From Candidatus Methylomirabilis sp. (GTDB lineage: Bacteria; Muiribacteriota; Ozemobacteria; Ozemobacterales; Ozemobacteraceae): a DNA stretch of 64,000 nucleotides. The notes under the pieces are model-generated. The model was not told the origin of the DNA. It worked only from the letters and a program-made list of their open reading frames with translations, and made no database searches. The stretch spans positions 45,129 to 109,128 of the forward strand of contig DYKG01000003.1 of assembly GCA_020722725.1 (NCBI GenBank). The letters are read 5' to 3'. Below are positions 7,813 through 47,617 of this stretch, in pieces; position 1 is the first letter of the stretch, and each line of letters starts with the position of its first letter. Position numbers and translations under genes: made by a program.

Positions 7813-7839
7813 TTTTATGAATTGAAGCAGGCTGCACTA

Positions 7840-7868
7840 TTGAACTTTCCCCGCAATCATGCTAAGAT
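7840..7868 (+). promoter_or_regulatory. Candidate promoter TTGAAC-N17-TAAGAT ending 7 nt before ATG 7876
   Basis: -35 at 7840-7845 and -10 at 7863-7868. There is no SD before 7876, so the mRNA may be leaderless. Confidence 0.3.
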
Positions 7869-7875
7869 CGCGGTT

Positions 7876-10800: not shown

Positions 10801-12363
10801 GCCGACCCACTGGCTTCATCTACAGCAATCGCATCGATCACTCCCAAGGTTGTGGTTGAAATTTATGATTCGATCGAAAAAGTCGCTTCGATCTCTCAAG
10901 CTGCCACGGTTGCCGAAGTTGGCAAGCTGCAGTTCTTTTCATCGGTCACTCCTACGGTTATCGGCAACACATCAGTAAGCTGGACGGTTAACGGAACTAC
11001 CGATTCAGAGCAGTATGGCTCAATTGACGCCAATGGTCTTTACACGGCTCCTGATGAAATCTTCGTAAATGAAGTCACAGTTAGAGCTTCTTCAAATTAC
11101 GATCCAACTGCCTATGCAGAAGTAATGGTTCAATTGAGTGACTTCTGGTTACCCAAGCGCAACAATATGTATGATTCGATTACCGGTGAGGTAATGCCGA
11201 TCAATACTATTATGGTCAACCCCTTTACCGCGAGCGGCACTGATTTTACGGTTTATGCAGGCACCAGCGGCTATGGTGTCTGGAAATCGACATTTTCAGA
11301 CCTTCCAGGCAATACGACCGGTGGCGATTGGAGCGGCATTGCCGGCCTTTTTAATACGGCAAAACAGACTGACGGCAAATTTTTTGTCAGCCACCTGGCA
11401 ATATCAGCTAATCAGAAAGTTTATGCCGGAACTATCAATGGAATTTACTTCATCGACGCGAATACTGATTCTTCATTGCTGCTAACTTTCTCTGGTGGAC
11501 CAGAAACCACGCTGCCCAATGAAAACTTTCTTAAACTTGCCTTTGACGCAACCGATCCGCGAATCCTATTCACAACAACACCAAATGGTGTATATAAAAT
11601 TACTTTAAACAGCAGTAATCCAGACCAGTTCGATTCTATTTTAAAAGTTTTGAACACTACCGACGAATACAGGGTATTAGAAGGACGCCCCAATGGTTCA
11701 GGTGGCTCGGTTGTAGCGTTTGGTGATACCGACCAGGTAAATCCAATCAATGCCATACTCAAAACCATTGCGTATGATGAATACCTTGACCGGCTTTACG
11801 CTGGTGGTGAGGGCGGTGTATTTCTTTATCTGCTGCGAACTGATCAGTCCAATCTTCAGACAATATCTCCAGCCACAGCTTTCAGAGGACCGGCACCGGC
11901 GACCGACACTTGGCAACTCGCACTTATTTATGATTTGACACCTAATCAACCGTTACCAAGTCAGCAGCCACGATTACCCCAGACTTCACCTCCTCTTGAT
12001 ATTGCGATTGACGTAGTGAATAGAAATACCATCTGGGCAGCAACGGTAGCGGGCGTTTATCGTTCGGTTGACAATGGTGTTAGCTGGGCTGCACGCCCAT
12101 TTACCTCTGGCAGTATAGTAAATACCAGAACCATAATAGTTGACCCGACAAACACCATAAATGTACTGGCAGGCAGCGAAGATGGCCTTTATCGCTCAAC
12201 TAATGCCGGTGGAACCTGGAAACGCATACGCAGCGGTCTGGGCAATCACAAAACGATTACCTGCCTGACTCAGGCTTCAGGTCTTGCCGGCGCCCGCCGC
12301 AAAGTCTGGGTTGGCACCGCCGGTGGCGTCTTCATGGGCAAACAATCTCTCGATCTGGAATAA
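7876..12363 (+). CDS. Giant surface lipoprotein with CarboxypepD_reg-like, Fn3/Ig-like and C-terminal BNR (Asp-box) beta-propeller modules
   Basis: The N-terminus from ATG 7876 is a lipoprotein signal (MKNLLAIFLFLCLCIFIGC) followed by a Gly run (GVGGGGSG). The ORF track starts at TTG 7822. The central part shows repeated beta-sandwich pattern. Asp-box repeats sit at the C-terminus (RSVDNGVSW, YRSTNAGGTW). Confidence 0.7.
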   Translation: MKNLLAIFLFLCLCIFIGCLGVGGGGSGNPTGLVSLNTPAILAGRAYFADRQLYGNIPVSAVNSAGQTAETVLTDSAGYFGFTQLSQGLYDLVAVTGDSEVIFSRGVQVAGNTQKQVNETSLLGIVDVKIYNIASTSFEIEFRSNRASRASVEYGPVGGFQQVKTIGQAGAIYHQTRIDNLKPLTDYEVTLFLTGDDGQDFVYRGLFMATTPEPGPQNLSVAINEGDYETKYQNVTLDLEADNATQMRISETYDMAEATWVSFSQTYSYSFKTTTAGTRRIYVQFRDVSGNVTAVQSDSILMNLTGYLGIWINDGSAITNNSEAVLKIMFPGATHMQLSNSADFLNSFWETYTESRRWKFSSGDGLKTVYCRFRGGKADEKESFNASILLDTTPPEVTMKINEGKTVTATTAVALSFSFSTPPVQMKITNTAAPTSTMEWLNFKSSLDWVLPETDGEKTVYGLFKDRAGNEYGPVTALITLDTVAPTGNTIDIREGETAESEVASFALLASLPVYLHFTAADTSTFKAHYAITPATTTEPISFTDVTSPFVAVPLSSDKLPVGKHKIWVRFSDLAGNLGFFQTTSIEIDGPQIIISPESATLTSGREQQFNATIKNIEMADVGSIRWRVITGSGTIDNDGLFTAPAPVYVPSQTVVRADSTLISTLFAYSTVNLATSVEMLFQQRDSKFTYDAINDQVAPGQSFNVAVKILNSTRAFEISQLPVAGTVSISAGVAADFGTVATLTYNAPAVAPTQNPVTIGIRSISAPTTVAGTMTLTISTGPNLVLSPTSGDAQRNNPLTISATVTGTSVNTMNWAISPTNMGSFDPNNPSVTTTTTVSPHSVTFYASSPARIQQASVTATIDGASKSTIITVYPPLRFTIEPPATSSMPIIAPITFKAQGFDYLLGTASEAVIWEFKNLNRTDYMPADGKTFIDRGSLTIIDSTTAEYRRPAKLPSESDATAADAVIIRATSVADPLASSTAIASITPKVVVEIYDSIEKVASISQAATVAEVGKLQFFSSVTPTVIGNTSVSWTVNGTTDSEQYGSIDANGLYTAPDEIFVNEVTVRASSNYDPTAYAEVMVQLSDFWLPKRNNMYDSITGEVMPINTIMVNPFTASGTDFTVYAGTSGYGVWKSTFSDLPGNTTGGDWSGIAGLFNTAKQTDGKFFVSHLAISANQKVYAGTINGIYFIDANTDSSLLLTFSGGPETTLPNENFLKLAFDATDPRILFTTTPNGVYKITLNSSNPDQFDSILKVLNTTDEYRVLEGRPNGSGGSVVAFGDTDQVNPINAILKTIAYDEYLDRLYAGGEGGVFLYLLRTDQSNLQTISPATAFRGPAPATDTWQLALIYDLTPNQPLPSQQPRLPQTSPPLDIAIDVVNRNTIWAATVAGVYRSVDNGVSWAARPFTSGSIVNTRTIIVDPTNTINVLAGSEDGLYRSTNAGGTWKRIRSGLGNHKTITCLTQASGLAGARRKVWVGTAGGVFMGKQSLDLE

Positions 12364-12502: not shown

Positions 12503-15500
12503 TTACCATGCGCCGGTTCTGAATCTGATGATGTAGTTATTCGTGCGGTCAGTGACATAAAGGTCATTTTGAATAATGGCAATACCGTAAGGCTCGGTAA
12601 ATTCACCGCGATCGATGCCGTTGCCGTTTTTTCCAAATGAATAAATCAAATTACCGCTTGAATTGATTACATGAACCCTTGGAGTCCCGGCAGTCTGATC
12701 AGTCACGTATGTGTTACCAGTGGAACTGTAAGCAAAATTCGTCGGGTTGTTAACCGTCTGAGAAAGCCAGCTGGCCACCGAATTCAAATCGTTGCCGAAC
12801 CTCAGTACCTTATCGTTACCATATTCAGAAACTCCAAGAGTGGTGGCATTGATCAGATTAATGTCACGAGGCGTGCTTAAAGCCTGAGATTCACTAAAGA
12901 AAACCCCATTGGTAATATCTAGTTTTTTGATGCGGTTATTGTCGGTATCTGCGACATAAATTGCATTGGCATCGACGCAGAATCCAAATGGATTTTTGAA
13001 CTGAGTTGAAAGGTTGCCATCGGGAATATAATAGTTTCTGATTGAAGAATGCAAGGTGCCAGTATCCCAGCTCTGAATTCGGTAATTTCCGCCGGAAAGG
13101 TTGCCGAGACTGTATAAGGTCGTGCCAGTATATGAAATATCCAGGTAAGAATGAGTCTGGGAAGCAACAGCAGTCTCAGTAGCAATTGAGGGAAAATCAC
13201 CAATTGTGGTTAATCCGGCGGTAAGACGATTCAATTTAACGATTCGTGAATTACCCGGATCAATAACGAAAGCCGCATTATTGCCAAATCCTAATATAGC
13301 CGTTGGCCCGCTCAGGGTTCCTGGCCCAAAGGGGGCACCGCCAAGCGGAGTGAAAGTATTGTAACCTTCCGAATCCCAGATCCAGAAAGTAAAGCTAGCG
13401 GTTGAAATCTGGTTGTATTCATCCTGAACCTGAACCGTGTAAGTGTAACTGCCGGGCGTTTCAAAGTTGCGGGTCAGGGTTGCCACATTGCCAAGCAGCA
13501 CTGCGCCTTCATACCAGTTGATTTTCGCCGGGGCAATAATGTCGGTGTCTTCTTCCTGAGCGGTTACGCTGAAGGTAACCTGCATACCAGGGCTTGCAAG
13601 ATGAATGGGAATATAATTCGAAGGCAGCGGGTATTCTGGCCCGTCGGCAAATTTTGCCGGAGAGCTGATGAAGGGTTTTGAAATAAACGTTGGAAGTTTG
13701 TCGATGAGCACCTGAATAGTAGATGACCTGGCGGTATTCTGGGTATCAGTGCCTATGTAAGTAATAGTCTGAACACCACGGGTGAGGGCTGAAGTATTCA
13801 AAGTCGGGCCGCCGCCGAATGACGTGGTGCCTTCCGGCCACCACCAGTCGGTGGGAATCAATGCGGTCAAATCAGGAGTGCCGGTGAAAGAAATCGTTGC
13901 ACCAGTGTCGAATCTGGTGCCAGAAGCGGGGGCAGTTATGGAAGGCACCCCGATACCGACCTGAATAGTGTAAGTTGCGCTGTTGAAAGTGCCGAGATCG
14001 TCGAGACCACCCAGCGAGATGTTGATGGTTCCGGTGGGGAGTTCGGCGACGGTTCCGGCAAAGCTGTTGGTGCCACTCTTGTAGAGAGCGCTGTTTTTAT
14101 ACCAGCGAAGCGATGCCACGGGGATGGCAAAACCACCAGAATCTGTGCCAGAGCCGCTGAAATTGATATTCTGCCCGCCGAAATACTTGCCATTATTATC
14201 TGGATCGATAATCGTAAAAGTGGGTGGGTCATTTATCACAATCTGAATGGTTTTCGATTTCGATAATCCGGCCGAATCGGTTCCAATGTAGGTGATAGTC
14301 TTGAGCCCGCGGGTCGGGAAGGCATAGGAAATATTTGCGCCGCTTCCCATGAGAGTTACGTTATCAAGATACCAATTCATGGTAAGCGGGCCACCCGAAT
14401 CAGGGCTACCGGTGAAATTTACATTTGCACCGATAGCAAATCTGGTTCCTGAAGCCGGGCTTGAGATGGTCGGGTGGCTGACACCCACTTCGATGGTATA
14501 GGTTGCACCGCCATAAGCGTTGAATTCGTCTTTAACCTGCAGGCCAATATCTCTGGTGCCGGTGGGCATTTCGGCAACCGTGGCGGTGAAAGCATCGACA
14601 CCGGATTTAAAATTGGTGGTATCGCGGAACCATTTGAAATTGGCGGCGGCAATTGCGCCACCACCTGAATCGGTGCCGGTTCCCGAGAAACTGAGGGTCT
14701 GGTAACCAAAATATCTGCCATTATTGGCGGGTAAAGCAATGGCGGCTGCCGGTGCGTTGTTAAGCACTATCTGAATGCTGCCTGACCTGGTAGTGCCAGC
14801 ATCGTCGGTGCCGCGATAGGTCAAAGTCTGCAGACCGCGAGGCAGAGTGGCAATCGAAGCGTTGGGTCCGGCACCAAACACGGCAGCCCCTTCCACCCAA
14901 TACCATTCGGTGCTTATCACCCCGGTCAGATCAGGGGAACCGGTCAGAGCGATGTTGCTGCCAAGAGCATAGCGGGTTCCAGAGGCTGGACTGCTAACCG
15001 AAGGATGGCTGATTCCCACTTCAATCGTGTGGGTTGCACCATTGTAAGTGCCCAGATTATCTTTGGTCTGCAGACCGATCTGCAGAGTGCCGGTAGGCAG
15101 ATCAGCTACCGAAGCCGAAAAATTGGCGAAACCATTTTTGAAATTGGTTCCGTCTCTGAACCATTTAAAAGTCGAAGTATCGACGGCTGAGCCGCCTGAA
15201 TCGGTGCTGCTGCCCGAAAACGCCAGAGTCTGACCACCAAAGTAGTTGCCATTGTTAACCGGAGTTGCGATGCTCACCGTCTGCGGGTTATTGAGAACAA
15301 CCTGAATGGCACCGGATCTGGTGGTTCCGGCGCTGTCGGTGCCTCGGTAGCTGAGAGTGTGCAGACCCCTGGGCAATGTTGCGATTGAGGCATTGGGTCC
15401 GGCGCCGAAAACGGCGGTTCCCTGGGTCCAGTACCATTCTGTGGGTATCAGCCCGGTCAGATCGGGGAAACCGGTCAGCGCAACATTACTGCCCAGAGCG

Positions 15501-18500
15501 TATCTGGTGCCTGAAGCGGGCCCGGTGATCTGCGGCACGTCGATGCCAGTCTGAATCGTGTTGGTAACTGTGCCGGTGGTGCCGAAGGAATCGGTGCCGT
15601 CGAGTCTGACGTTAACCGTGCCAGTGCCAAGCTCGGCGATGGTGGCTGAAAAATTTGCAACAGAGTTTCGCCAGGAAGAACCGTCACGATACCATTTAAA
15701 AGTGCTGGTCAAAATCGGTGAACCGCCCAGATCGACACCCGAACCCGATACGCTCAGTATCTGACCGCCGAAATATTTGCCGTTGTTTACCGGGGCAGCA
15801 ATGGTCATGGTCGGGGTTTCGTTGATCAGTATCTGAATATCCTTGCGGCTCAGCAGACCGGCGCTGTCAGTGCCGATATAAGAAATGGTCTTAACCCCTC
15901 GGGTTGCAAAGCTGTAAGTCAGGTTAGCCCCGTTGCCAAGCAGAGTTTCGCCGGCCTTGCCATAATCGAAATACCAGTACATGGTAATCGGTGCCGTCGT
16001 ATCCGGGGTTCCGGTGAAGTTTATATTGGCACCGATGCTGTAAGTCGAGCCTGACGCTGGGGATATGATGTCGGCAAGCGGATGACCGTAGAAAATATCG
16101 TGGGTTCCGGTGCCAGTGGTGCCGTATTGGTCAACACCGGCTGCATCGATGGTGTGCCAGCCCACGGTCAGGTCACCGGCATTAACGGTTGCAGGTGATC
16201 CGGTGTCAAACAGGGCTCCATCAATATACCATTTGAAAGTCGAGGCATTGATTGGCGGGTTTGGTGCGATCGCTTCGATTCCAGACCCTGCCAGATTGAA
16301 CGAAGCCCCGGCAAAAATCACCGCATCAGAAACACCATCGGCAGGCGGGGTGAAAGTAATGGTCGGCGAATCGTTCATCAGAATCTGAACGCTGAAAGAG
16401 CTGCAATAACCGGCACTGTCGGTGCCCAGATAAGTGATGGTGTTGAGACCGGCAGGAATGGTGCTGGTATTGAAGCTGGCCGCATTGCTCATATACACCG
16501 GCGCTCCGCCATTTGAGCGGTACCACTGCATATCGATCGGGGCCAGAGTTGCAGGAGAACCGGCAAATGCCACATTTGAGCCAATCGGGAAAGTTGAACC
16601 CGACGCGGGCGCGGTGATCTGAGCCAGGGTTACGCCGTAATAAATGCTGTTGGTTATGTCACTGCTTACACCAAGAGAGTTTTGTGCTTCAACTTTGATC
16701 TGGTGCAGGCCGACACTGAGATCACCAACATTGACCTGAACCGGCGAGCCGCTTCTGAATGCTGCAGTTTCGCTGTCGCGATACCATTTGGCCGTAGCTT
16801 CAACGACATCCCCGCCAACTGTCAGGTTGAAAGGTTGCCCGACAAAAAGTCGCGAGCCATTTCCGGGAGTGAAGTTAATCGCAGGACTGTTGCTGACGAT
16901 TACCCGGATAGTCGCAGAGCTAACCACCCCGGCCGAATCGGTTCCAATATAGGTTATAAAATGATTGCCATTAGGAATGATGGCATTGAGCGTAGTACCA
17001 TTGCCAAGCAGGGTCGAGCCAACCGTGTTATAATCGAGCCACCACTGCATGGTAATCGGACCAGTGGTGTCGGGAGTGCCGGTAAAGCTGTACATGGTAG
17101 ATTCAGGAATTACCGTATCGTTGAGCGGTGAACTTATGCTGGCGTTGGCGACTCCGAGATAGATGCTCTTGATTTCTTTGCCAACGGCGTTGATAGAATT
17201 GGTTCCACGCAGCTCAACCTGTCTTAGCCCTGGCCCAACCGCAGAAACCATTGCCGGATCGACAGTGAATACAGAGAAAGAGGCCAATCTCTGAGTATTA
17301 TCGATATACCAGGCCATACGGTTTGCAGGAATGGGCAAACCGGTCAGGGTGTCAGTTCCAACCCCGTAGAAAATAACATTTTTGCCGGCAAAGAAGGCTG
17401 TGCCCGCTCCAGGTGAAAAATCCATGGTGGGAAACTGACCAATGCTGAGATTTATACTGTCAGAGCTGATAAAACCTGTGCTGTCGGTACCAAAGTAAGA
17501 GATATTGTAATAACCGTCAGGCAGCGAATTGGTGCTGACATTGGCCCCTTCGCCGATCGGCGTGGCCCCAGGCTGGCCGTAATTGGCCCACCACTGCATG
17601 GTAATCGGCCCAATACTGTCGGGAACGCCTGAAAAATTAATGGTAGTGCCCGAAGTAAACGTCGAATCATTGGCGGGCGAATTGATCTGAGACATGGTGA
17701 TGCCGCTTCTGATGGTATGAGTCCGAGTAGCGAGGGTGCCATATGGCCCAACGGCCTCAAGTGCTATCTGATAAGTGCCTGGTGCCATCTGATTGAGCAG
17801 GAAGCCTTGGGAAACCGTGAAGACACTGCCAGTTCTCCAGAAACCGCCGTCAATATACCACCGCAGCCTGGTATCAGGAATCACGTTGTTGTCTGTATCA
17901 ATGGCATTGCCGTTAAAAGTAATATTATGGCCGGCAAAAATGCAGGCTCCATCGGCCGGAGTGTAAGTGACAATAGGCGGGCGCTCGACAACGATTCCAA
18001 TCGTCGCCGAACCAACAAAGCCCTGACTGTCGGTACCACGATAACTTACCCGATAAGCACCGTTTGGCGGAGAATAAGTTACATTCTGGCCGCTGCCAAA
18101 GCTATTGGGGTCTTCATTCAGGAACCATGCAAGATTGAGGGTTCCGGTTGAGTTGGGGGTTGCAGCAAAATTGATGCTGGTACCCGGGTCAAATCTAGTG
18201 CCGCTCGCCGGGCTGGTTATAACCGGAAGCTGCCACCCGACTTCAATGGCATGGGTCGGACTATCGGCCTGGCCCAACTTGCTTTCACCCTGAACTCTGA
18301 CCCGATATGTTCCCGGAACCAATGAATTAGAGGCAATTACAAAACTTTCACCGGTCTGCCAGATGGCTGGCTGATTATTCAAATACCATTCGAATTTGGT
18401 CACATCAAGGACACTGCCATCAGAATCGGTTCCGCTGGCCAGAAAACTGATCGAATTTCCGGCAAAAATTACACTGCGATCGGTGGGCAAAAAGGTAATG

Positions 18501-20365
18501 CGCGCCGGCAAATCATACCAGATGATTATGCTGCTCGAACCGGCCAATCCTGCTGAATCTAATGCAGTCAGGCGTATTTCATGGCGGCCTGAGCTGAGTA
18601 TGGGCACCACAAGGCTGGTTCCCGAGCCGAGATAGCCATCGATATCAGAGCTCCAGACAATTCTGGCAGCATCGGTAATCAACCCGTCTTCATAATCGTT
18701 GACCACTCCGATAAAATTGATGGTCGAATTGGCGAGAAAGCTGGCATTATCAGCAGGAGCAGTAATTACGCAAACAGGTTTTGCGTTGACTATCGCAATT
18801 TCTTTGGTAGCAGTGCCGATTACGCCTTCGTTGTCGAGACATTGCAAAGCTACAGAATAGCTGCCTGCCTGGCTGAAAGAGTAAGTAAATGAGGCTGTTC
18901 CAGTCTTTTGCATGATGAAATCTGCTGTACCTGTTGCCAGAAACCAGGTCATGCGTTCAGCAGGAATAGCGGTGTTTAAATAATCGCGGCCGCTGCCGAA
19001 AAACTCGATCAGCCCGGGTTCGAAACTGGTGCCGACCGGACGTTCAATCAGAGTCAGAGGTGAAGCGGTCACTTTTACAACTATCTGCTTCTGAGCCGCA
19101 CCGATGCCATCATCAGCCACCACTGTAATATTAGTCGTTAGAGATTCTCCCAGGCCTAATGCCGGCGAGCGCCAGATCATGGTTTTCTGATCCTGACCTG
19201 AAACGATGGTGCCAAGATCGGCGGTCCAGGCGTAAGTCAGATTCAGCCCGGCAGGGAAATCTGGAACTGCTTCAAATTGAGCAAAAGAATCGCCGGGAAT
19301 CTGAAGTGTAGCAGTACCAATAATTTCTACCCGGCGATTGACCGGCTGAACCGCTATGCCATCGGGAAAAGTCACAACCCCTGATGCCACGACGACATCA
19401 AGGCGAGCAGAAGAAGTCAGGCGCGGGTAAGCGAAACCGTCTTCGCGCGCGGAATAGAAAATGGTTGCCGAGGCGTTTTCCGATGGAATTGCCCAATCGG
19501 CGTAGGTATCAGATTTGTAGGAAAAAGTGCTGACCGTGGTCTGCCAGTCGATTGCCAGAGGTTCTCTTTCGGGGTCATAGGCGGCACCGGTCAGACGCAG
19601 AAAAGCGGAACCGTTGGCCGGACTATCGTCAACCGACAGGCTTACTTGGGGAGCCTGATTGGTGATACCGGCCGTAGGAAGCGTTACCCCGACAATCGCC
19701 AGATTATCTTCCCTGAAAGAGGTTGTAGTAAGCACGATTTGCGTCTGTGAAAGATCTTTATCAGCCGGCGGTTCTATTTTGATAGTGCCCATGGCACCTG
19801 TCGGCATGTCGGGCGAAACGTAGTAACCGCCTTCGTCGAGGGCAAACTCTTCGCCCCAGAGCTTGATTTTGCAGCGACCCACCGGATTACCCTGCAGATC
19901 TTTGACCAGAAGCCGCATTTTGATATTCGCCAGATCTTTTTCATACAAATATATGTTTTGCCGCTTTTCCATTGCTTCAGAGCTTACATTCAACTGTTCG
20001 GTTCTGACTTTGAATATCCGCCCGGAAAGCGAAGTCATTCTGGCAATAATCCGGTAATTTCCAGGTGGAACATTGTCGAAGGTAAAATTGCCCTGATCGT
20101 CAGCGCGGGTCGTCATGCCGGGCATTTCTTCAAGAAAAAGGCAAGAATCGATAAATAACCGATTGCTTCTATTGTTTTCAGGGCGCAGCGATGTTACCGT
20201 CGAATCGGTTACAATCGTACCAAAAATACGGCCATTAACCAGTGCAGGACCAACGGGGCTCAAGCCTGTTCCAGCGCCAGAACCTCCGCCGCCGCCACCA
20301 CCACCACCACAGCCGATGAAGATCAATAACCCGATCAGGCAGGCAATGAAAATACGCAGCGCCAT
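12503..20365 (-). CDS. Giant (~2,620 aa) surface lipoprotein: lipobox, Gly9, CarboxypepD_reg-like domain, ~25 tandem Ig-like domains and a C-terminal NHL-repeat beta-propeller
   Basis: A single uninterrupted ORF. The probable start is ATG 20365 (MALRIFIACLIGLLIFIGC, lipobox), whereas the ORF track used TTG 20401. GCGGGGGGGGGSGAG follows the lipobox. DDQGNFTFDNVPPGNYRI is CarboxypepD_reg-like. Two Ig-like domain types (ISSPASGTR...WY...GTDSAG and P..NNG.YFGGQ...F.WYRDG) alternate through the body. NHL blades (YVADTDNNRIKKLD, YVTDRTNNYIIRF) form the C-terminus. Confidence 0.8.
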   Translation of the reverse strand: MALRIFIACLIGLLIFIGCGGGGGGGGGSGAGTGLSPVGPALVNGRIFGTIVTDSTVTSLRPENNRSNRLFIDSCLFLEEMPGMTTRADDQGNFTFDNVPPGNYRIIARMTSLSGRIFKVRTEQLNVSSEAMEKRQNIYLYEKDLANIKMRLLVKDLQGNPVGRCKIKLWGEEFALDEGGYYVSPDMPTGAMGTIKIEPPADKDLSQTQIVLTTTSFREDNLAIVGVTLPTAGITNQAPQVSLSVDDSPANGSAFLRLTGAAYDPEREPLAIDWQTTVSTFSYKSDTYADWAIPSENASATIFYSAREDGFAYPRLTSSARLDVVVASGVVTFPDGIAVQPVNRRVEIIGTATLQIPGDSFAQFEAVPDFPAGLNLTYAWTADLGTIVSGQDQKTMIWRSPALGLGESLTTNITVVADDGIGAAQKQIVVKVTASPLTLIERPVGTSFEPGLIEFFGSGRDYLNTAIPAERMTWFLATGTADFIMQKTGTASFTYSFSQAGSYSVALQCLDNEGVIGTATKEIAIVNAKPVCVITAPADNASFLANSTINFIGVVNDYEDGLITDAARIVWSSDIDGYLGSGTSLVVPILSSGRHEIRLTALDSAGLAGSSSIIIWYDLPARITFLPTDRSVIFAGNSISFLASGTDSDGSVLDVTKFEWYLNNQPAIWQTGESFVIASNSLVPGTYRVRVQGESKLGQADSPTHAIEVGWQLPVITSPASGTRFDPGTSINFAATPNSTGTLNLAWFLNEDPNSFGSGQNVTYSPPNGAYRVSYRGTDSQGFVGSATIGIVVERPPIVTYTPADGACIFAGHNITFNGNAIDTDNNVIPDTRLRWYIDGGFWRTGSVFTVSQGFLLNQMAPGTYQIALEAVGPYGTLATRTHTIRSGITMSQINSPANDSTFTSGTTINFSGVPDSIGPITMQWWANYGQPGATPIGEGANVSTNSLPDGYYNISYFGTDSTGFISSDSINLSIGQFPTMDFSPGAGTAFFAGKNVIFYGVGTDTLTGLPIPANRMAWYIDNTQRLASFSVFTVDPAMVSAVGPGLRQVELRGTNSINAVGKEIKSIYLGVANASISSPLNDTVIPESTMYSFTGTPDTTGPITMQWWLDYNTVGSTLLGNGTTLNAIIPNGNHFITYIGTDSAGVVSSATIRVIVSNSPAINFTPGNGSRLFVGQPFNLTVGGDVVEATAKWYRDSETAAFRSGSPVQVNVGDLSVGLHQIKVEAQNSLGVSSDITNSIYYGVTLAQITAPASGSTFPIGSNVAFAGSPATLAPIDMQWYRSNGGAPVYMSNAASFNTSTIPAGLNTITYLGTDSAGYCSSFSVQILMNDSPTITFTPPADGVSDAVIFAGASFNLAGSGIEAIAPNPPINASTFKWYIDGALFDTGSPATVNAGDLTVGWHTIDAAGVDQYGTTGTGTHDIFYGHPLADIISPASGSTYSIGANINFTGTPDTTAPITMYWYFDYGKAGETLLGNGANLTYSFATRGVKTISYIGTDSAGLLSRKDIQILINETPTMTIAAPVNNGKYFGGQILSVSGSGVDLGGSPILTSTFKWYRDGSSWRNSVANFSATIAELGTGTVNVRLDGTDSFGTTGTVTNTIQTGIDVPQITGPASGTRYALGSNVALTGFPDLTGLIPTEWYWTQGTAVFGAGPNASIATLPRGLHTLSYRGTDSAGTTRSGAIQVVLNNPQTVSIATPVNNGNYFGGQTLAFSGSSTDSGGSAVDTSTFKWFRDGTNFKNGFANFSASVADLPTGTLQIGLQTKDNLGTYNGATHTIEVGISHPSVSSPASGTRYALGSNIALTGSPDLTGVISTEWYWVEGAAVFGAGPNASIATLPRGLQTLTYRGTDDAGTTRSGSIQIVLNNAPAAAIALPANNGRYFGYQTLSFSGTGTDSGGGAIAAANFKWFRDTTNFKSGVDAFTATVAEMPTGTRDIGLQVKDEFNAYGGATYTIEVGVSHPTISSPASGTRFAIGANVNFTGSPDSGGPLTMNWYLDNVTLMGSGANISYAFPTRGLKTITYIGTDSAGLSKSKTIQIVINDPPTFTIIDPDNNGKYFGGQNINFSGSGTDSGGFAIPVASLRWYKNSALYKSGTNSFAGTVAELPTGTINISLGGLDDLGTFNSATYTIQVGIGVPSITAPASGTRFDTGATISFTGTPDLTALIPTDWWWPEGTTSFGGGPTLNTSALTRGVQTITYIGTDTQNTARSSTIQVLIDKLPTFISKPFISSPAKFADGPEYPLPSNYIPIHLASPGMQVTFSVTAQEEDTDIIAPAKINWYEGAVLLGNVATLTRNFETPGSYTYTVQVQDEYNQISTASFTFWIWDSEGYNTFTPLGGAPFGPGTLSGPTAILGFGNNAAFVIDPGNSRIVKLNRLTAGLTTIGDFPSIATETAVASQTHSYLDISYTGTTLYSLGNLSGGNYRIQSWDTGTLHSSIRNYYIPDGNLSTQFKNPFGFCVDANAIYVADTDNNRIKKLDITNGVFFSESQALSTPRDINLINATTLGVSEYGNDKVLRFGNDLNSVASWLSQTVNNPTNFAYSSTGNTYVTDQTAGTPRVHVINSSGNLIYSFGKNGNGIDRGEFTEPYGIAIIQNDLYVTDRTNNYIIRFRTGAW
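13650..17400 (-). repeat. Intragenic tandem repeat array, about 531-bp (177-codon) period, each unit encoding a pair of Ig-like domains
   Basis: Shadow ORFs on the opposite strand recur at 528-531-bp offsets (14474 vs 15005; 14520 vs 15048) and at 1575 bp = 3 units (13782 vs 15357). Adjacent protein units are up to ~90% identical, while the DNA differs at most synonymous sites. Confidence 0.6.
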
Positions 20366-20418
20366 TCTTTCATGATACCCTGTAGAGAACAGACTAAGCA
20401 ATAGCCGCGCGAGAAAGG

Positions 20419-22635
20419 TTAAAAATTATTGAATTCTTCTTCGGGCACGGCGCTGTCCTGCCAGTTGATGATGGTGAAACCGGCCAGCGGATAAGGCGGG
20501 AAATAGTCGCCACCGCCGCTTACATAAGTCGAATCGTAAACATTGCGTCGCACAACTGACTGGTCATCGCGCAGTGAACCACTAAGATAGGTTTTGGCAG
20601 TGCGATTGCGCAGGTGAATCATCGAGCCGTGGTGGCGCAGAATAAAGCGATTGTTTTTGTCAATGAAAGGCAGGCTCTTCATTTGCGGGCTTTGAATATT
20701 GCCGATTTCGTTGCGCACTTTGGTCGGCATGTTTCCGTTGCTCCAGCGGGCATTGAGCTCGGCAGAATCGATCAGCATGGCGTTTACCGTCATCTCAGGT
20801 ATTTTAAAACCGGTTTTCGGGTATTTCATCGCCAGCTTGAAAAGCCGGTCGGCAGCATTCCATGGGCCCAAAGCCGGGTCAGGTTCGTTATCTTCAATCT
20901 CTTTCTGTGCCTGCTCAAGAATTGAATCGATAATCTTGTCACGGGCACCGGCGAGTATTACTCCGGTCATGTAGGCACGGCCCGCGATTCCCTCGATGAT
21001 TGCAACCCGCTTTAAATCACTTTTCAGGCAGAAGCGCACCTTGTATTCTTCAGGTTTGGAAGAGTAATTAAGATAGTCGCGCAGCTTTTTCAGAGCGGGG
21101 TGAGCAGCGATGCCCGCCATGGTTACCGGAATGATTTCCGGCGGAGTTTTTGGCAATGCTGCCAGAGCATTGATAACGTGAAAATTCAATGCCGTCATGG
21201 GCAAACGCTTGTCTGATGAGGTAGTACTCATTTTCGGCGGAAAAACGGTTGCCCCGAGAACCACCGGGTTAAGCTCATCACCGCCGAGTGCCATGGCAAT
21301 TTCATAATCGATCAGGGTCTTCAATTCATTACGCAGAAAATTCAAGGGTTGCGAATAGTCGAACCAGATGCGGCCCATCGATATGACCATAACCCCGTTT
21401 TTATCGGTGCCGTTACGCGGGTCTTTGGTGTAATCCTTGAAGCCCGGTGTGTAATTCTGGGGATTTTCGTGGTTTTGATTGAAATCGCCGGCAATGTAAA
21501 CGTCTTTTTCACAGAAAATCGTCAGACTTTTCCAGGGCGGGCAGCCCCAGATGCGCAGTGGCACTTCTGAATAAAGCAGCACCTTGTCTTCGACATTTTT
21601 GAATTCCCAGCCGAAAAACAGATCGTAAACCACCTCATCGGCCCGCTCGGGATTGCGCCATTTCGACTCTGAAAATCCTTTGAACCCGCAATTGGCTCGA
21701 AGAAATTCAGGCCTTGGCTTTTGCGCGTTTTTCCAGTATGCCGGGTTCAATGGCGGCAATTTCTGCGGTTTTGCACCATGATAGCCATCCTGGAAGTAAT
21801 AATCGATGACCGTATCACCGGACTTTCTCTCGAACTGCCCGAAAGAATCAGGGTCTGAAGAATCGTTGCCTTTTTTGATCGTGACCCGTGGCCCATTGTT
21901 GAATTCGACCTGAACCGATGACTCGGCCTTTATATGGCCGGGCGTAGAAATCTTTTCGGTTTTCAGAAACTCAAGACCACGATCAAATGGGCCGCGCTGG
22001 CTGAAAATCACAAGTTCATGCCCGTAAAGACGTCCTGACCTTGCTTCCCCAGGAATAATTCTGTATGGCCCATAGCCTCCGGTATCGAGAACCTGCCCGT
22101 CGTAGAAGAGGAAGTTTCCTGGCAGAATCTTTTCAATCACCGTGGAAATCTTACGGCAGGCTCCCTCTACCTTTCCTACAGCTTCAAGCAGAAAGTAGCG
22201 ATGTGATTCATCTACAGTTTCAGTATCAAGGCTGTTCCTGGCCCCTATCAGTTTAACTCTTACCCTGAACTCGCCGTTAAGTTTCATTTCTGGAAGATCG
22301 ACCCGCCCCGAATAAGTTCCCCGGTCGTTCCGGTCGAGCTTAAGCTGCTTGAAACTCTTCAGAAAAAGGTATTTGTGAGGGGCCGGTGACGACCATTTTT
22401 CACTGGGAATATAGGGGTTGCCATGGGTGACAAACTGGTAATCGGCTTTCATCTCTGCCAGCACGCAATGCAGACCTGTTTCGGCGACACACAGTGCCAG
22501 ATAATCACGGGCTGATTTTGACAGAAGATTTATCTGGCCGCGCTGAAAATTAAGCACTGCACCGCCGAGAATACCCAGAACGAGGCATACCATCAGCAGA
22601 ACGATCAGAGCCTGCCCGCTTCTGAAGCCGATCAT
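20419..22635 (-). CDS. GspK/PilX-like minor pseudopilin with a large (~700 aa) C-terminal extension
   Basis: The N-terminus MIGFRSGQALIVLLMVCLVLGILGG resembles GspK (R-G-x-A-L-x-x-V-L with a hydrophobic helix and no Glu at +5). The start overlaps the upstream pseudopilin gene in an ATGA junction. The gene is 17/53 nt upstream of the giant gene on the same strand. Confidence 0.55.
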   Translation of the reverse strand: MIGFRSGQALIVLLMVCLVLGILGGAVLNFQRGQINLLSKSARDYLALCVAETGLHCVLAEMKADYQFVTHGNPYIPSEKWSSPAPHKYLFLKSFKQLKLDRNDRGTYSGRVDLPEMKLNGEFRVRVKLIGARNSLDTETVDESHRYFLLEAVGKVEGACRKISTVIEKILPGNFLFYDGQVLDTGGYGPYRIIPGEARSGRLYGHELVIFSQRGPFDRGLEFLKTEKISTPGHIKAESSVQVEFNNGPRVTIKKGNDSSDPDSFGQFERKSGDTVIDYYFQDGYHGAKPQKLPPLNPAYWKNAQKPRPEFLRANCGFKGFSESKWRNPERADEVVYDLFFGWEFKNVEDKVLLYSEVPLRIWGCPPWKSLTIFCEKDVYIAGDFNQNHENPQNYTPGFKDYTKDPRNGTDKNGVMVISMGRIWFDYSQPLNFLRNELKTLIDYEIAMALGGDELNPVVLGATVFPPKMSTTSSDKRLPMTALNFHVINALAALPKTPPEIIPVTMAGIAAHPALKKLRDYLNYSSKPEEYKVRFCLKSDLKRVAIIEGIAGRAYMTGVILAGARDKIIDSILEQAQKEIEDNEPDPALGPWNAADRLFKLAMKYPKTGFKIPEMTVNAMLIDSAELNARWSNGNMPTKVRNEIGNIQSPQMKSLPFIDKNNRFILRHHGSMIHLRNRTAKTYLSGSLRDDQSVVRRNVYDSTYVSGGGDYFPPYPLAGFTIINWQDSAVPEEEFNNF

Positions 22636-23339
22636 GGATGAACTCCGTTCAATTTTCCTCTTATCGAAAAACAGGTGCGAACCTGGTGAACAGCATCGTC
22701 TTCTTTGTTCTTATCGTTGTTCTTTCTTACAAACGTTGCTCTGACATGGACAAGGTAGGGTCCGGTTCCATCAAGTTCATACGGGTCAAAATTAAGCAGA
22801 TTTTTAAAAGGCAGGCCGGAAGCAAAACCGGTAAGTGAAACCGGCTTTCTGTTAGTCGTATAAATCAGCATTTCTTTGATGCCTTCACAGATTTTTTTTC
22901 GATGTTTTTTTTTGTTTCCGGGAATGTTTGATTTGACCAGGCGATAAAGGTCGCTGGTACCATCGTCACATTTTTCAAGCGAATATTCAATTATTTCTTC
23001 ACGCAGAAAACCCGGATCAGGTGGCTTCAGGGCGAAATCAAAAAACTGTTGTCTTAAAGAACAGACCTTGCCCTCATTGGTCGCCATAAGCTGTGGGACA
23101 GTCTGACGATTGGTCTGCCGAGGAAAATCGAGCCAGGCTGAATTTCGAATGTCGTTGCCAAGATGGGCAAAAAATCGGCGGGCATTCTCGTTGACGCCGA
23201 TGTGTTCCAGGGCTGTTTTAATCTGCCGGACTTCGGCAAAAAACAGCCTATAAACCGCCAGCATAAGCACAGAAAACAAAGCAGCGGCAATTATTACTTC
23301 AAAAAGAGTAATAGCATTGCGTTTGTTTGAAATTTTCAT
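22632..23339 (-). CDS. Minor pseudopilin (PilW/GspJ-like) with a prepilin-type N-terminal domain
   Basis: Prepilin leader and helix MKISNKRNA|ITLFEVIIAAALFSVLMLAV, with Glu at +5 and Ala instead of Gly at -1. Confidence 0.6.
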   Translation of the reverse strand: MKISNKRNAITLFEVIIAAALFSVLMLAVYRLFFAEVRQIKTALEHIGVNENARRFFAHLGNDIRNSAWLDFPRQTNRQTVPQLMATNEGKVCSLRQQFFDFALKPPDPGFLREEIIEYSLEKCDDGTSDLYRLVKSNIPGNKKKHRKKICEGIKEMLIYTTNRKPVSLTGFASGLPFKNLLNFDPYELDGTGPYLVHVRATFVRKNNDKNKEDDAVHQVRTCFSIRGKLNGVHP

Positions 23340-23346
23340 TTGATTT

Positions 23347-23835
23347 TTACCACAGATCGCAATGGGCGGTTACCGTTTCAAAAACAACCGATTTGCCATC
23401 AACACCGGATTTCCACTCAACCCTGACCTTGACCAGCTTCAGCCCAGATTCGACATCGGGATTATCAGAAGGAACCTCTTCAACGTTGATTGTGCGACGA
23501 TACTTCACTCCGCCGATCTCTATCACAGGCACAAAACCGTCACCATTTTTTACGTCATACGGGTTCTCGGACGAATGAAAATCTGCTATCAGGGTATTTT
23601 TTCGACCATCGCGGTCAACCCCGATTTCTCGGCCACGAGCGGCTCTAATCGCTTCAATTGCCTGGTTTGTCAGGAAAATTGCATTTTCATAATTTCTGAC
23701 TTTTGCCACTCCGGTAAAACTGCTCGAAATTGTCCAGCCGATAATAAAAACTACAACCATCAGCAATCCAGCAATGATGATTTCCACAAAAGTCATCGCT
23801 TTTCGATTTTCTGTATTCATAGCCTTTCTGCGCAT
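23347..23835 (-). CDS. Minor pseudopilin (GspH/I or PilV-like) with a prepilin-type N-terminal domain
   Basis: N-terminus ...NRKA|MTFVEIIIAGLLMVVVFI with Glu at +5. The first gene of the minus-strand pilin operon. The true start may be Met6 (23820). Confidence 0.55.
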   Translation of the reverse strand: MRRKAMNTENRKAMTFVEIIIAGLLMVVVFIIGWTISSSFTGVAKVRNYENAIFLTNQAIEAIRAARGREIGVDRDGRKNTLIADFHSSENPYDVKNGDGFVPVIEIGGVKYRRTINVEEVPSDNPDVESGLKLVKVRVEWKSGVDGKSVVFETVTAHCDLW

Positions 23836-23962: not shown

Positions 23963-24949
23963 TCAGAAAATATCTTGCGGGTTGAGCCCGGCTTCCATTA
24001 TTACCATGTCTGGTGTCCGGCCGGTTCCATCGCGAAGATCCTGGGTTTCGGGGCCATCGACGATTTCTTTAACGAATTTCGGGTCGAGACAGGGGTTTTC
24101 CTGGTTCGAATTGGGAGGATTGGGAGCATCGCCAGTGGGAACCCAGACGAAATCGGGGTGATTCCTGCTTGAAGAACCGGTCCACTCGCCCTCGATAATA
24201 TTGCCATTACCATCGAGAAAAAGGTTATAGGTATAGGTAGTGCTGAACCATTTTGTACCGAGAAAATCAGGTTTAACTCCATCGTCGGCGTAATAAACCG
24301 TGGTTTTAACCTTGAGTTTGGAATCATCGAACCATCCGGTTGACCAGCTTGATTCGAATTTGAACATGGGGAAATTCCAGACCTGGTTGTCCCACGAAGT
24401 GTCGCAGATCATGGCGCTCTTACCAGATGCAATATATTCCATTAGCAATCGGTGAAATTCATCGGGATAAATATCATCGGGGTCATCATTGCTTTTGCCC
24501 CAGTTACGATTGCCGTAGAATTTACAGTAGGTATTCATGTAAAGTTCTGACAGAATAGCCTTCTGGTCTGAGGTTTCAAAAACGATTCCGTTTCTAACAT
24601 GTTTTTTTCTTGGTTCGGGGGTAAGCATCGATGCAGCTGACCAGCCATTGCAATGGCCTTCCCAGTTTTCGGCATTGGGATTGTAATGGGCGTTGCGCGG
24701 ATTGCTTTCCCAAGCATGAGCGCCAGGGTTTTTACCGGTGCGGCTCTGAACGAAGGCATCATAGCGTTCGAGTGGCGATGGACTGTGACCCGGCCAGCCT
24801 TTAACCATGAATCCTTTTTTACGTGACCACCAGTCACCAGACCATGGAGCCGGCTTGATTTCACCGGATGCGGAACCATCATCAGCAGCAACTGCAACTA
24901 ATGGAGAAAATAACGACAGCACTAAAACAATTAACAGAGTCTTATTCAT
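23963..24949 (-). CDS. Secreted hypothetical protein (signal peptide) with a Cys-containing motif reminiscent of thiol-hydrolase active sites
   Basis: Signal peptide MNKTLLIVLVLSLFSPLVAVAADDG. The motif WEGHCNGWSAASM loosely resembles the papain-type CGSCWAFS region. A His-containing stretch (NHPDFVWVP) lies downstream. Trp-rich, with no other recognisable domain. Confidence 0.35.
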   Translation of the reverse strand: MNKTLLIVLVLSLFSPLVAVAADDGSASGEIKPAPWSGDWWSRKKGFMVKGWPGHSPSPLERYDAFVQSRTGKNPGAHAWESNPRNAHYNPNAENWEGHCNGWSAASMLTPEPRKKHVRNGIVFETSDQKAILSELYMNTYCKFYGNRNWGKSNDDPDDIYPDEFHRLLMEYIASGKSAMICDTSWDNQVWNFPMFKFESSWSTGWFDDSKLKVKTTVYYADDGVKPDFLGTKWFSTTYTYNLFLDGNGNIIEGEWTGSSSRNHPDFVWVPTGDAPNPPNSNQENPCLDPKFVKEIVDGPETQDLRDGTGRTPDMVIMEAGLNPQDIF

Positions 24950-25734
24950 CAGTCATTGCCTCCGTTCTGGTTGTTCTGACCGGCATTTTTCGGCAGCAGC
25001 AGGCGAATTTTGCGAGCAACGCTTTCAGAGCGCAAAGCCCAGGGTGAGCCTTCCTGCCACAGCTGCATCAGACTGGTATTTGATCGTGGTTCAGCGAGTT
25101 CAACCTGAAAATTCCGGCTGTTTGAGCGATAAGCATTGAAAGTATCAGCAAACTGCTTTTCAGGAGCTTTGTTTTTCTGGGCGACGGTTCGCTTGAAAGA
25201 AAGGTTACCTACTTTGGTAACCCGGCTGAAGCTCTGGGCCACCGGTTCACTGCGATAGGCATTGAATCCATCGGCATTCTGTATGGCGGCATCAGATCGA
25301 ACCAACGGAAAAACCGGAAGATCGTAGGGAACCAGAGTATCTTCCGCCAGCAATGGCTGGGGGTTCATCGGATCAAGGTCTCTTTCGCTGCTCTTAACAC
25401 CTTCATTCGTCGGGTAAATATCGATAACGCGAATTGGCCGAAGATCATCGACTGCCAGCCACAGAACCGCCTGAACTTTCATCGAAACATTGCGCGGAAA
25501 AACATGAATAACATAGCAGTTTTGATCGGCAATGGCCTTGATGGCCCTGACTTTGAACACCCATTGAATAGGGGGCATCCAGACTTCACCTGGCAAACGC
25601 ATATCGCGGTATGAAGCTTCGAGAAGCCAATGATCGCCCACATTCCATTTCGGCACAAAACCCTCAGCCGCGCTTAACGGGCTGGAACACAGCAGCACAA
25701 CCGCCATCACCAATCCAGGAATCCAGTTTCGCAT
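24949..25734 (-). CDS. Secreted hypothetical protein with an internal duplicated FNAYRS motif
   Basis: Signal peptide MRNWIPGLVMAVVLLCSSPLSAAEG. The stop shares the nucleotide that begins the downstream gene (operon). No recognisable domain. Confidence 0.4.
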   Translation of the reverse strand: MRNWIPGLVMAVVLLCSSPLSAAEGFVPKWNVGDHWLLEASYRDMRLPGEVWMPPIQWVFKVRAIKAIADQNCYVIHVFPRNVSMKVQAVLWLAVDDLRPIRVIDIYPTNEGVKSSERDLDPMNPQPLLAEDTLVPYDLPVFPLVRSDAAIQNADGFNAYRSEPVAQSFSRVTKVGNLSFKRTVAQKNKAPEKQFADTFNAYRSNSRNFQVELAEPRSNTSLMQLWQEGSPWALRSESVARKIRLLLPKNAGQNNQNGGND

Positions 25735-25832
25735 TTTCTACCTCCGAACGGAGAATCGTACAGTAAGTTTACTCACAAAAAAGCAATGCGTCAATTATCA
25801 ACCATAAGGTAAGATTGGCTAAAATAAAAGAA

Positions 25833-25906
25833 CGCACCTACCTGGACTCGAACCAGGGGCACCAGGATTAGGAATCCTGTGCTCTATCCACCTGAGCTAT
25901 AGGTGC
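25833..25906 (-). tRNA. tRNA-Arg (anticodon CCU)
   Basis: Minus-strand sequence GCACCTA-TA-GCTC-AGGTGGATA-GAGC-A-CAGGA-TTCCTAA-TCCTG-GTGCC-CCTGG-TTCGAGT-CCAGG-TAGGTGC-G. All four stems are Watson-Crick. The anticodon loop has U33 and A37. T-loop TTCGAGT. No CCA is encoded. Confidence 0.85.
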
Positions 25907-25919
25907 AGCTAACTTCTTG

Positions 25920-30300: not shown

Positions 30301-30507
30301 GTCGCCGATCGCATCAAAAAAGCGGTTGAAGGCGCTGAATACAATTACCGCGATTCGGTAATGAGGGTAACAGTATCGATAGGGGTCAGCGCTTTGCATG
30401 GACGCCAGATAACGGTTGAAGAAATTATTGAAGAAGCCGACCGGGCTCTTTACGTTGCCAAGGATAAAGGCAGGAATCAGGTTCGCATTGCCCCGGAAGC
30501 CATGTAG
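27346..30507 (+). CDS. Membrane sensor diguanylate cyclase (large extracytoplasmic domain, HAMP, GGDEF with a GGEEM active-site variant)
   Basis: TM segments are present. The HAMP region is LLREFLTPISVLSSGAKSIIGGNLDLNLPVFARDELGELSETFNFM. The GGDEF domain includes ITDGLTKLYVRRFF, DIDHFKKFNDNFGHQAGD and RYGGEEMVILLPQT. Confidence 0.8.
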   Translation: MNNDITDKSYSSVLHKPSLWLFLFVFFAVLPVLIYFSCYELFIENEFTTSREKLTQYYQRELTAFRNRATNRNIFLQLLQSYRDNCRKNIPDKPNDNSIHLTELLAELPSNTSLISWNNNGEIVAGFTRIHPSEKISEIQVRRFVDLLNESYSDFNSGIDLQTLQQTRDYELKNRPFFSSIKPLIGLNFPATRLFTRRNSLEYVTDDRSEVFFFWDYYNAKDNSQGGFAAIIPRQNLPATFALSRVLEKDPSANPEFTNGLLDSATGKTKLSFPQLQTVAEKMIAGCRNDVVNPYSANDWVIFMQPVAESSSANLFNMFSTRSLRESYESSIKSSQLVCIIILIALGFLFFFFFRVTRDRGLSLRKKLVWLFILCMQLPVSILIFLGIHFSLSKERLLSIEADRKLIELVRKIDYSAQDHYRSLTSWLKTLRDLPELKAVDKEKLHRTFYDFAHNNQLQSFYLVGIDGSIEFDIENLESEQSNRLFMRELGVKILAGYGQSEESVDSESVSEGFLDQVITRKGQLHQILWPGSGAKKLIFSDVANTDSGRPMALIAVLDKLTVDRGYLKQAITNQYRSNPDHEILIINSEDISDTIPKLSPTFKANLLPMLTTARISSSIETDRITDENDTMLVALGQGSNIPDFLIGAQANWAKIMESIRYMYFLVSIGLFFSLAASTFMITVLLREFLTPISVLSSGAKSIIGGNLDLNLPVFARDELGELSETFNFMTRRLKNRLTELTVLYNMTQKASTSHNQREVFSLAAENLVKHLHGQSFGTAWINEGEGEESVYLADHCEESFENAVQSVVRNALRTYKIQLAFSEAIHKHILGIPLYFEEKKFGAVYLLFDEDRFKNSSGFSEDEKSFMETLRHHLSLIIEKQRLFEQAITDGLTKLYVRRFFLATLEKELSRSKRYQLDVAVLLIDIDHFKKFNDNFGHQAGDMVLRETAQRLTECIRSVDTPGRYGGEEMVILLPQTNIKEAFVVADRIKKAVEGAEYNYRDSVMRVTVSIGVSALHGRQITVEEIIEEADRALYVAKDKGRNQVRIAPEAM

Positions 30508-47539: not shown

Positions 47540-47557
47540 TTCAGTATTTTGCTGAAC

Positions 47558-47601: not shown

Positions 47602-47617
47602 CTGCCGGGAGATTTTT

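Follow-up and report, generated by a model that had tools for sequence, protein, structure and literature searches.

A predicted minor-pilin tip operon with a ComZ-like solenoid subunit in Riflebacteria and its giant lipoprotein neighbor

INTRODUCTION

The Thermus protein ComZ combines a GspK-like pilin domain with an inserted solenoid of about 380 residues that resembles ice-binding proteins; it binds DNA as well as the neighboring minor pilin PilA2, and its authors argue that it fits the pilus tip only (PMC6561018). In cyanobacteria, several minor-pilin sets per genome prime specialized pili, and the PilX subunits of these sets, which lack Glu5 and carry a bulky beta-solenoid and sometimes extra domains, were proposed to form a tip plug that replaces PilY1 (bioRxiv 10.64898/2026.02.12.705559). 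Here, we analyze a 64,000-nucleotide (nt) stretch of DNA (positions 45,129 to 109,128 of contig DYKG01000003.1; referred to as the window) from a genome that we assign to the Riflebacteria (Rifleibacteriota, family Ozemobacteraceae) on the basis of the source names of its homologs. It contains three genes, p162, p235, and p738 (the trio), which are followed by the gene of a 2,620-amino-acid (aa) lipoprotein (the giant). A first-pass annotation made from the sequence alone had described the four genes as a filament-displayed giant adhesin module, with the giant in the place of PilY1. Our results make it likely that positions 23835-20419 constitute a three-gene core operon for the minor-pilin tip of a type IV filament, with p738 as the cap and the giant as a neighboring surface adhesin.

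The capping subunits GspK and PilX are recognized by a leader that ends in Gly at position -1 and is not followed by Glu at position +5. PilY1 commonly, although not universally, carries an N-terminal vWA-like domain; it has an ordinary Sec signal and no lipobox. In the type II secretion system (T2SS), the lipoproteins PulA and SslE are exported to the cell surface and are encoded next to the secretion genes.

RESULTS

Layout and transcription signals of the locus

The locus comprises the following elements (coordinates are positions in the window):

23947-23918, minus strand: terminator-like hairpin (13-bp stem, 8 GC pairs, T-run) between the TGase_elicitor gene and p162
23835-23347, minus strand: p162, open reading frame (ORF) of 162 aa, with an alternative ATG start at 23820
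23339-22632, minus strand: p235, ORF of 235 aa
22635-20419, minus strand: p738, ORF of 738 aa
20366-20418, minus strand: spacer of 53 nt between p738 and the giant gene
20365-12503, minus strand: giant lipoprotein gene, 2,620 aa from the ATG and 2,632 aa from an upstream TTG

The four products, including the 2,620-aa giant, were reproduced by an independent gene call on a public contig, and the ORFs and junctions of the four packed, codirectional genes were as first annotated. p162 and p235 are separated by a 7-nt gap, p235 and p738 overlap by 4 nt (ATGA), and the giant follows p738 after a 53-nt gap. The ATG start of the giant is backed by the N terminus MALR(I/L)F, which is conserved among its orthologs, and the true start of p162 may be the ATG at 23820 instead of 23835. 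The strong hairpin just upstream of p162, which had been overlooked in the first-pass annotation, is predicted to mark the 5′ boundary of the trio transcription unit. At the other end of the trio, neither a terminator-like nor a promoter-like site was found in the 53-nt spacer, and the earlier suggestion of cotranscription was not refuted: because no terminator parts the giant from p738, the giant may be cotranscribed with the trio. A pattern search for -24/-12 (sigma54) promoters gave no site upstream of p162 or of the giant. In relatives, the spacer between p738 and the giant spans 54 to 480 nt, with promoter-like sites in one locus (L035). No coding-strand terminator was found between the two genes in relatives with long spacers, so that independent transcription of the giant is neither shown nor excluded. 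A Pfam scan that took in all larger ORFs of the window detected no secretin or prepilin peptidase gene and none for an assembly ATPase or a platform protein; the first-pass annotation had likewise reported no ATPase, platform, or secretin gene.

p162 and p235 carry prepilin-type N termini

The leader of p162 ends in RKA/MTFVE and that of p235 in RNA/ITLFE (the slash marks the predicted cleavage site). In alignments of homologs from related loci (51 for p162, 52 for p235), Glu+5 was invariant and position -1 was Gly or Ala, which bears out the prepilin-type N termini noted before. p235 matched the Pfam model N_methyl (PF07963) at 5.9e-5; the same model matched 37 of the 51 p162-family members but not the p162 of the window. 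Searched against PDB sequences, the profiles of both families retrieved solely pilin N termini (geopilin, PilA, and MshA), with weak E values of 0.04 to 0.2. An AlphaFold (AF2) model of p235 (70 sequences; predicted local distance difference test [pLDDT], 81.9) comprised a helix at residues 12 to 66 and then an antiparallel sheet. The top PDB match of this model in Foldseek was EpsJ (2ret_F; probability 0.99, E 0.02), followed by type IV pilins; the E values of these matches, 0.02 to 0.9, are weak. A homolog with 92% identity to p235 is labeled "PilW family protein" by NCBI. By their sequence motifs, p162 and p235 are genuine prepilin-type minor pilins. The predicted model gives p235 a pilin fold and a GspJ/PilW-like character, and motif, size, and gene order suggest the GspI/PilV position for p162. 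Both proteins would be cleaved and N-methylated by a prepilin peptidase and incorporated into a filament. A Tad-type pseudopilin identity was ruled out, as no TadE matches were found in the trio.

p738 is a predicted tip subunit with a ComZ-like solenoid

The N terminus of p738 (RSG/QALIV) conforms to the start pattern of its family, which consists of basic residues, Gly, and then (Q/S)(A/G)(Y/L/I)(I/L)(V/I). Among 86 homologs, 81 had Gly-1, and the residue at +5 was always Val, Ile, or Ala and never Glu; the GspK/PilX-like start proposed in the first-pass annotation was thereby upheld, and the fold agrees with it. The p738 sequence had no direct Pfam or NCBIfam match (T2SSK, PilX_N, and GspK models included), and its family profile found nothing among PDB sequences. 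The AlphaFold model, built with 86 homologs, was confident (pLDDT 90.8; predicted template modeling score, 0.87) and began with a helix (6-64) and a sheet (about 98-170), continued with a long series of short strands (about 175-426) and a helical domain (about 431-604), and closed with further strands (614-729). Structural matches of this model scored as follows:

Thermus thermophilus ComZ (6qvi), 256 residues aligned: 14.2
Ice-binding beta-solenoids: 10.6-12.1
Tapirin-type adhesin domains: 8.0-8.8
Streptococcus sanguinis minor pilin PilA: 8.8
GspK: 7.9
XcpX: 6.8
GspI/EpsI/XcpV: about 5.5

In Foldseek, the only significant matches of the model were three ComZ chains (E 9e-6 to 8e-5). The order of ComZ before ice-binding solenoids before GspK/XcpX is the pattern that was reported for ComZ itself (PMC6561018). 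When the family profile was searched against 1.84 billion representative proteins, about 60 clusters with lengths of 690 to 935 aa matched at E<1e-30. The named matches of the other homolog searches were Riflebacteria metagenome-assembled genomes (MAGs), apart from a few odd labels. Weak matches of the profile (residues 4-80) reached proteins that Pfam independently calls PilX_N (2e-9 to 3e-11), several of which also carry DUF7305.

According to the predicted model, p738 belongs to the GspK/PilX class of tip minor pilins, with a ComZ-like beta-solenoid inserted at about 175-426 and a helical domain at about 431-604. The modeled solenoid head is of a known type, and the helical domain stays uncharacterized. 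The GspK-like extension of about 700 aa, which had been considered unexplained, corresponds to a ComZ-type beta-solenoid, as described for ComZ and cyanobacterial PilX, together with this helical domain. The earlier proposal that the first three genes form a minor-pilin operon following the GspI/J/K (PilV/W/X) logic was supported.

The trio is conserved without the giant

Scanning one genome per species with p738 yielded 79 loci that hold relatives. Those with at least 1.4 kb of upstream flank were taken as informative, namely, 38 orthologous loci (46-97% identity) and 24 paralogous loci (about 28-33% identity; one of them, L066, was counted after inspection by eye). The order p162-p235-p738 was kept in every informative locus (38/38 orthologous and 24/24 paralogous, 62/62 together), and two or three trios were found in single Riflebacteria MAGs. 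The paralogous trios are stand-alone three-gene operons in which the next gene lies on the opposite strand or encodes a GGDEF protein; no giant followed p738 in any of the 24. The gene directly after orthologous p738 was distributed as follows:

Homolog of the giant: 12 of 38 loci
Homolog of a second giant lipoprotein (7822-12363 in the window): 8 of 38 loci
HisKA sensor kinase with a sigma54-dependent response regulator: 14 of 38 loci
Something else: 4 of 38 loci

Of the four-gene synteny, whose recurrence in relatives had been named as a check, the trio was thus found again throughout. The giant adjoined p738 in no more than 12 of 38 orthologous loci and at none of the 24 paralogous trios and does not accompany the trio consistently. 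Two loci had the giant about 5 kb from p738, past a two-component system.

The kinase/regulator pair begins 2 to 31 nt after p738 in several loci. Such Ozemobacter-type arrangements (L001 12264-15175, L003 12569-15501, and 12 more) are reminiscent of PilS/PilR; no homolog of the pair was found in the window.

A second scan, in metagenomes and seeded with the N-terminal region of the giant, gave six loci, five of them with upstream flank. Because their entire neighborhood of about 25 kb is collinear with the window, we interpret these loci as clade-level synteny and not as specific coupling. A homolog search with the N-terminal 460 aa of the giant returned nothing, candidate selection probably having been swamped by the poly-Gly stretch.

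The giant is a predicted lipoprotein with Ig-like repeats and a C-terminal propeller

The giant starts with MALRIFIACLIGLLIFIGC, followed by nine glycines (G9), and the cut site of its lipobox reads LIFIGC/GGGGGGGGG. All giant orthologs and the second giant family retain the lipobox Cys and the poly-Gly stretch, both of which were part of the first-pass annotation. Judged from the lipobox, from which lipidation is predicted, the giant is a bacterial lipoprotein. The CarboxypepD_reg-like domain annotated before was seen again, but the match was weak and below the cutoff (27 versus 32.3 bits). Pfam matches to Big_7, BiPBP_C, PKD, and HYR support the immunoglobulin (Ig)-like repeats; a motif spacing of 173 to 185 aa corresponds to about 10 two-domain units of about 180 aa, or roughly 20-25 Ig-like domains by this count, where about 25 had been given. 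The C-terminal 300 aa form a six-bladed NHL propeller (Pfam NHL, 4e-7), as first annotated; the PDB entries Pizza, TRIM71, and PknD matched residues of about 295-463 of the last 465 (E 9e-19 to 1e-6). In the Pfam scan, the giant had no match to the PilY1/PilC propeller (PF05567) at E≤0.1 and none to vWA.

The giant diverges much faster than p738, as the identities per locus indicate:

L005: giant 58%, p738 86%
L035: giant 50%, p738 76%
L018: giant 32%, p738 57%

Its gene was split after p738 in L010 (12356-13630; 424 aa and then more) and in L014 (12229-21171; 769 and 2,208 aa), which points to frameshifts or assembly errors in a repeat-rich gene or to real pseudogenization.

Because PilY1/PilC and vWA matches were absent, the lipobox was conserved, and the giant was missing from most trio loci, we conclude that it is most likely neither a pilus subunit nor a PilY1 analogue, contrary to the first-pass annotation. 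The giant is probably a lineage-specific, fast-evolving, membrane-anchored neighbor of the trio that acts as a surface adhesin.

A second giant and further genes in the window

Two further features had escaped the first-pass annotation, namely, a second giant lipoprotein with a matching N-terminal design and a second pair of prepilin genes. These and two genes upstream of the trio are located as follows:

7822-12363, plus strand: second giant lipoprotein, about 1,500 aa, convergent with the first giant
30525-31100, plus strand: prepilin of 191 aa (..KGFTLVE)
31097-31723, plus strand: prepilin of 208 aa (..NAFTLVE)
23963-24949, minus strand: TGase_elicitor-like secreted protein, 328 aa (PF16683, 1e-26)
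24949-25734, minus strand: secreted protein of 261 aa without a family, preceding the TGase_elicitor-like gene

The N terminus of the second giant is designed like that of the first (..IFIGC, a Gly-rich stretch, and a CarboxypepD_reg-like match), and a BNR/sortilin-like C-terminal propeller is weakly indicated (Pfam E about 0.009-0.017; PDB 1.3e-3). Its family directly follows p738 in eight other genomes, and its orientation varies between genomes. A docking module common to both giants was ruled out, since there was no significant similarity beyond the lipobox/Gly-linker design. From their sequences, both giants look like members of a class of fast-evolving surface proteins with a membrane anchor that is common in Riflebacteria.

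Profile comparison relates the second prepilin pair to the p162 family (probability 91%) and the p235 family (probability 95.6%), so that the pair is I-J-like without a K-like partner. It lies between a HAMP-GAF-GGDEF gene (27346-30507) and a SpoIIE phosphatase gene (31723-33801), and this four-gene block is syntenic in many Riflebacteria loci. Three large membrane-sensor SpoIIE (PP2C-type) phosphatases are encoded in the window (31723-33801, plus strand; 47549-50500, plus strand; 50466-53300, minus strand), two of which carry HAMP; a similar HAMP-SpoIIE gene was seen in related loci.

Of 33 orthologous loci with enough flank, 31 carried the TGase gene upstream of the trio, usually alongside the 261-aa gene; none of the 24 paralogous loci did. 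In the window, the hairpin at 23947-23918 parts this pair from p162. Immediately upstream of the 261-aa gene, a tRNA-Arg(CCT) (25832-25907, minus strand) heads the minus-strand block; it was the only Rfam hit in the window, and no riboswitch was found.

Elsewhere, the opposite strand beside a paralogous trio (L083 12283-21281, chromosome OZ223236.1) encodes a polysaccharide deacetylase, Hfq, a 981-aa TPR protein, a 345-aa VWA protein, and a 1,047-aa Tubulin_2 (PF13809) protein; a size pattern of about 350/990/347/1,050 aa accompanies the paralogous trio in about nine other loci. A Tad-type locus lies on the opposite strand just upstream of the 261-aa/TGase/trio block in L003 (1-5016) and comprises genes for an A24 prepilin peptidase, two TadE proteins, RcpC, a secretin, and a CpaE-like ATPase. 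L084 contains a T2SSE ATPase gene. The genes in L003 and L084 indicate that type IV filament machinery, including secretins and prepilin peptidases, is present in the phylum.

DISCUSSION

Set beside ComZ and its partners PilA1-PilA3 (6QVI), p738 is likewise predicted to have a GspK-like pilin fold with an inserted beta-solenoid. It differs in being about 200 aa longer, in an extra helical domain of about 175 aa, in sharing only about 10-13% identity with ComZ, and in belonging to a three-gene I-J-K cassette that is present in 2-3 copies per genome. The cyanobacterial PilX subunits and their two core minor-pilin sets resemble the trio in that there are several sets per genome and in that the solenoid-bearing subunit lacks Glu5; however, they stem from another phylum and have no detectable sequence family link to the trio, and the Riflebacteria cassette consists of three genes, lacks a FimU/GspH-like gene, and has a giant lipoprotein neighbor in one clade. 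With the GspI-GspJ-GspK tip of the T2SS (3CI0, 5VTM, 2RET), the trio shares the gene order, the size ranking I<J<K, and a K subunit without Glu+5, and fold matches lead from p235 to EpsJ and from p738 to GspK/XcpX. In contrast, GspK comprises about 330 aa with an alpha-helical insert only, no other gsp genes adjoin the trio, and the Pfam/NCBIfam GspJ/K models gave no significant scores.

The Pseudomonas/Myxococcus FimU-PilV-PilW-PilX-PilY1 operon is similar in that, behind its minor pilins, the same strand encodes a very large protein with a beta-propeller at its end, but the giant has an NHL propeller, a lipobox, and no vWA, and its presence is not conserved along with that of the trio. The location of large lipoprotein genes next to genes of the pseudopilin type also recalls PulA and SslE, which are exported by the T2SS; here, there is no T2SS evidence, and the giants are built of Ig repeats and propellers and show no recognized enzyme domain. 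From all of these systems, the orthologous trio locus differs by its conserved upstream pair of secreted proteins, including the TGase_elicitor-like one.

The presentation of the giant as a PilY1 equivalent at the pilus tip, through its C-terminal propeller and by the minor pilins, would agree with its position on the same strand as p738, 53 nt away and with no terminator in between, and with the presence of a propeller, which may also terminate the second giant family. In 20 of 38 orthologous loci, p738 has a giant lipoprotein of one or the other family as its immediate downstream neighbor, although these loci belong to one clade. We nevertheless regard this explanation as highly improbable: no giant follows p738 in the other 18 orthologous loci or in any paralogous locus, the position is swapped with an unrelated protein in other genomes, and the PilY1/PilC propeller and vWA matches are missing. 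In addition, the lipobox would tether the N terminus to the membrane, a poor fit with display at the tip of a dynamic filament, and a ComZ-type tip head is already present on p738. Adjacency alone is weak evidence, as the whole region of about 25 kb is syntenic in the clade. Another option is that the trio caps a periplasmic pseudopilus of the T2SS type and that the giant Gly-linker lipoproteins, and perhaps the TGase_elicitor-like protein, are cargo sent to the surface. The GspI/J/K gene logic, the fold matches to EpsJ, GspK, and XcpX, the signal peptides or lipoboxes of the neighbors, and the differing giant lipoproteins that alternate after p738 are consistent with this, and a bulky tip subunit would be unproblematic for a pseudopilus that stays in the periplasm. 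However, no gspC-F, gspL, gspM, or gspD gene lies nearby in the window, the best structural match of p738 is a type IV pilus (T4P) competence pilin and not GspK, and paralogous trios and Ozemobacter-type loci have no adjoining cargo genes; minor pilins alone do not separate T2SS from T4P. On balance, we consider the cargo explanation unlikely.

A variant of the tip-complex explanation holds that the trio forms the tip of a competence pilus, with p738 as a DNA receptor like Thermus ComZ. ComZ was the top structural match of p738 by two methods, and ComZ itself binds both DNA and an adjacent minor pilin as its partner (PMC6561018). Yet at an identity of about 10-13%, the DNA-binding lysines cannot be mapped, p738 also matches tapirin-like adhesins, and no comEA/comEC genes lie nearby. 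Furthermore, the same solenoid design serves motility and exopolysaccharide pili in cyanobacteria (bioRxiv 10.64898/2026.02.12.705559), and of the two or three trios in a genome, probably no more than one would be reserved for DNA uptake. A dedicated competence role thus appears rather doubtful. Similarly speculative is the idea that the slot after p738 in one Riflebacteria clade is dedicated to Gly-linker giants with a distal beta-propeller, two unrelated families of which alternate, and that the trio-primed filament would be needed to deploy, present, or pull on these proteins of about 100 nm, either as T2SS-like cargo or as pilus-coupled adhesins. If true, such a clade-specific slot would represent a coupling of filament and giant adhesin that has not been described so far.

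We therefore favor the explanation that the trio is a minor-pilin tip operon with p738 as the cap. Several points weigh against it. The trio was located directly upstream in all five giant-seeded metagenome loci with flank, and the giant of the window follows p738 after just 53 nt with no terminator between them; a functional link between giant and trio in the giant-carrying clade is thus conceivable. As the identity to ComZ is low and p738 itself has no PilX_N/T2SSK match in Pfam, its assignment is a structural one that was drawn from a predicted model, and the GspI/PilV assignment of p162 was made from motif, size, and gene order. Finally, in the 64 kb of the genome that were covered, we found neither an assembly ATPase nor a platform protein, a secretin, a major pilin, or a prepilin peptidase.

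From the motifs, the predicted folds, and the synteny, we infer assembly, tip location, and function as follows. A prepilin peptidase would cleave p162, p235, and p738, and the GspI/PilV-like p162, the GspJ/PilW-like p235, and p738 would join via their N-terminal helices to form a heterotrimeric cap. This cap would prime a filament built by a T4P- or T2SS-type machine that is encoded elsewhere. Because p738 lacks Glu+5, it would be placed at the very tip only, from which its solenoid and helical domain would project as a plug and ligand-binding head; the ligand could be DNA, a polysaccharide, or a surface. In this way, p738 would take the role that PilY1 has in Proteobacteria, and the giant would occupy a variable slot for giant lipoproteins beside the operon in one clade. 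Since the cyanobacterial solenoid PilX has been proposed to replace PilY1, a PilY1-like function is more plausibly held by p738 itself than by the giant.

The trio represents a new sequence family, not annotated before, within a known type of system, namely, a minor-pilin tip complex with a ComZ/solenoid-PilX head. For a filament-displayed giant adhesin module as a conserved architecture, we obtained no support. As a caution, a giant gene behind a minor-pilin operon is by itself no evidence for a PilY1-like tip adhesin. The analysis provides a structural and functional annotation for Riflebacteria-restricted "hypothetical proteins" of about 740 aa, which belong to no Pfam family and of which each genome encodes two or three copies. 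In practical terms, the gain is modest, consisting of better annotation and a candidate head for adhesion or DNA uptake. At the same time, the tip type with ComZ or a beta-solenoid PilX, which has so far been discussed for Thermus and cyanobacteria, is extended to an uncultured phylum, which supports solenoid-bearing PilX subunits as a widespread alternative to PilY1.

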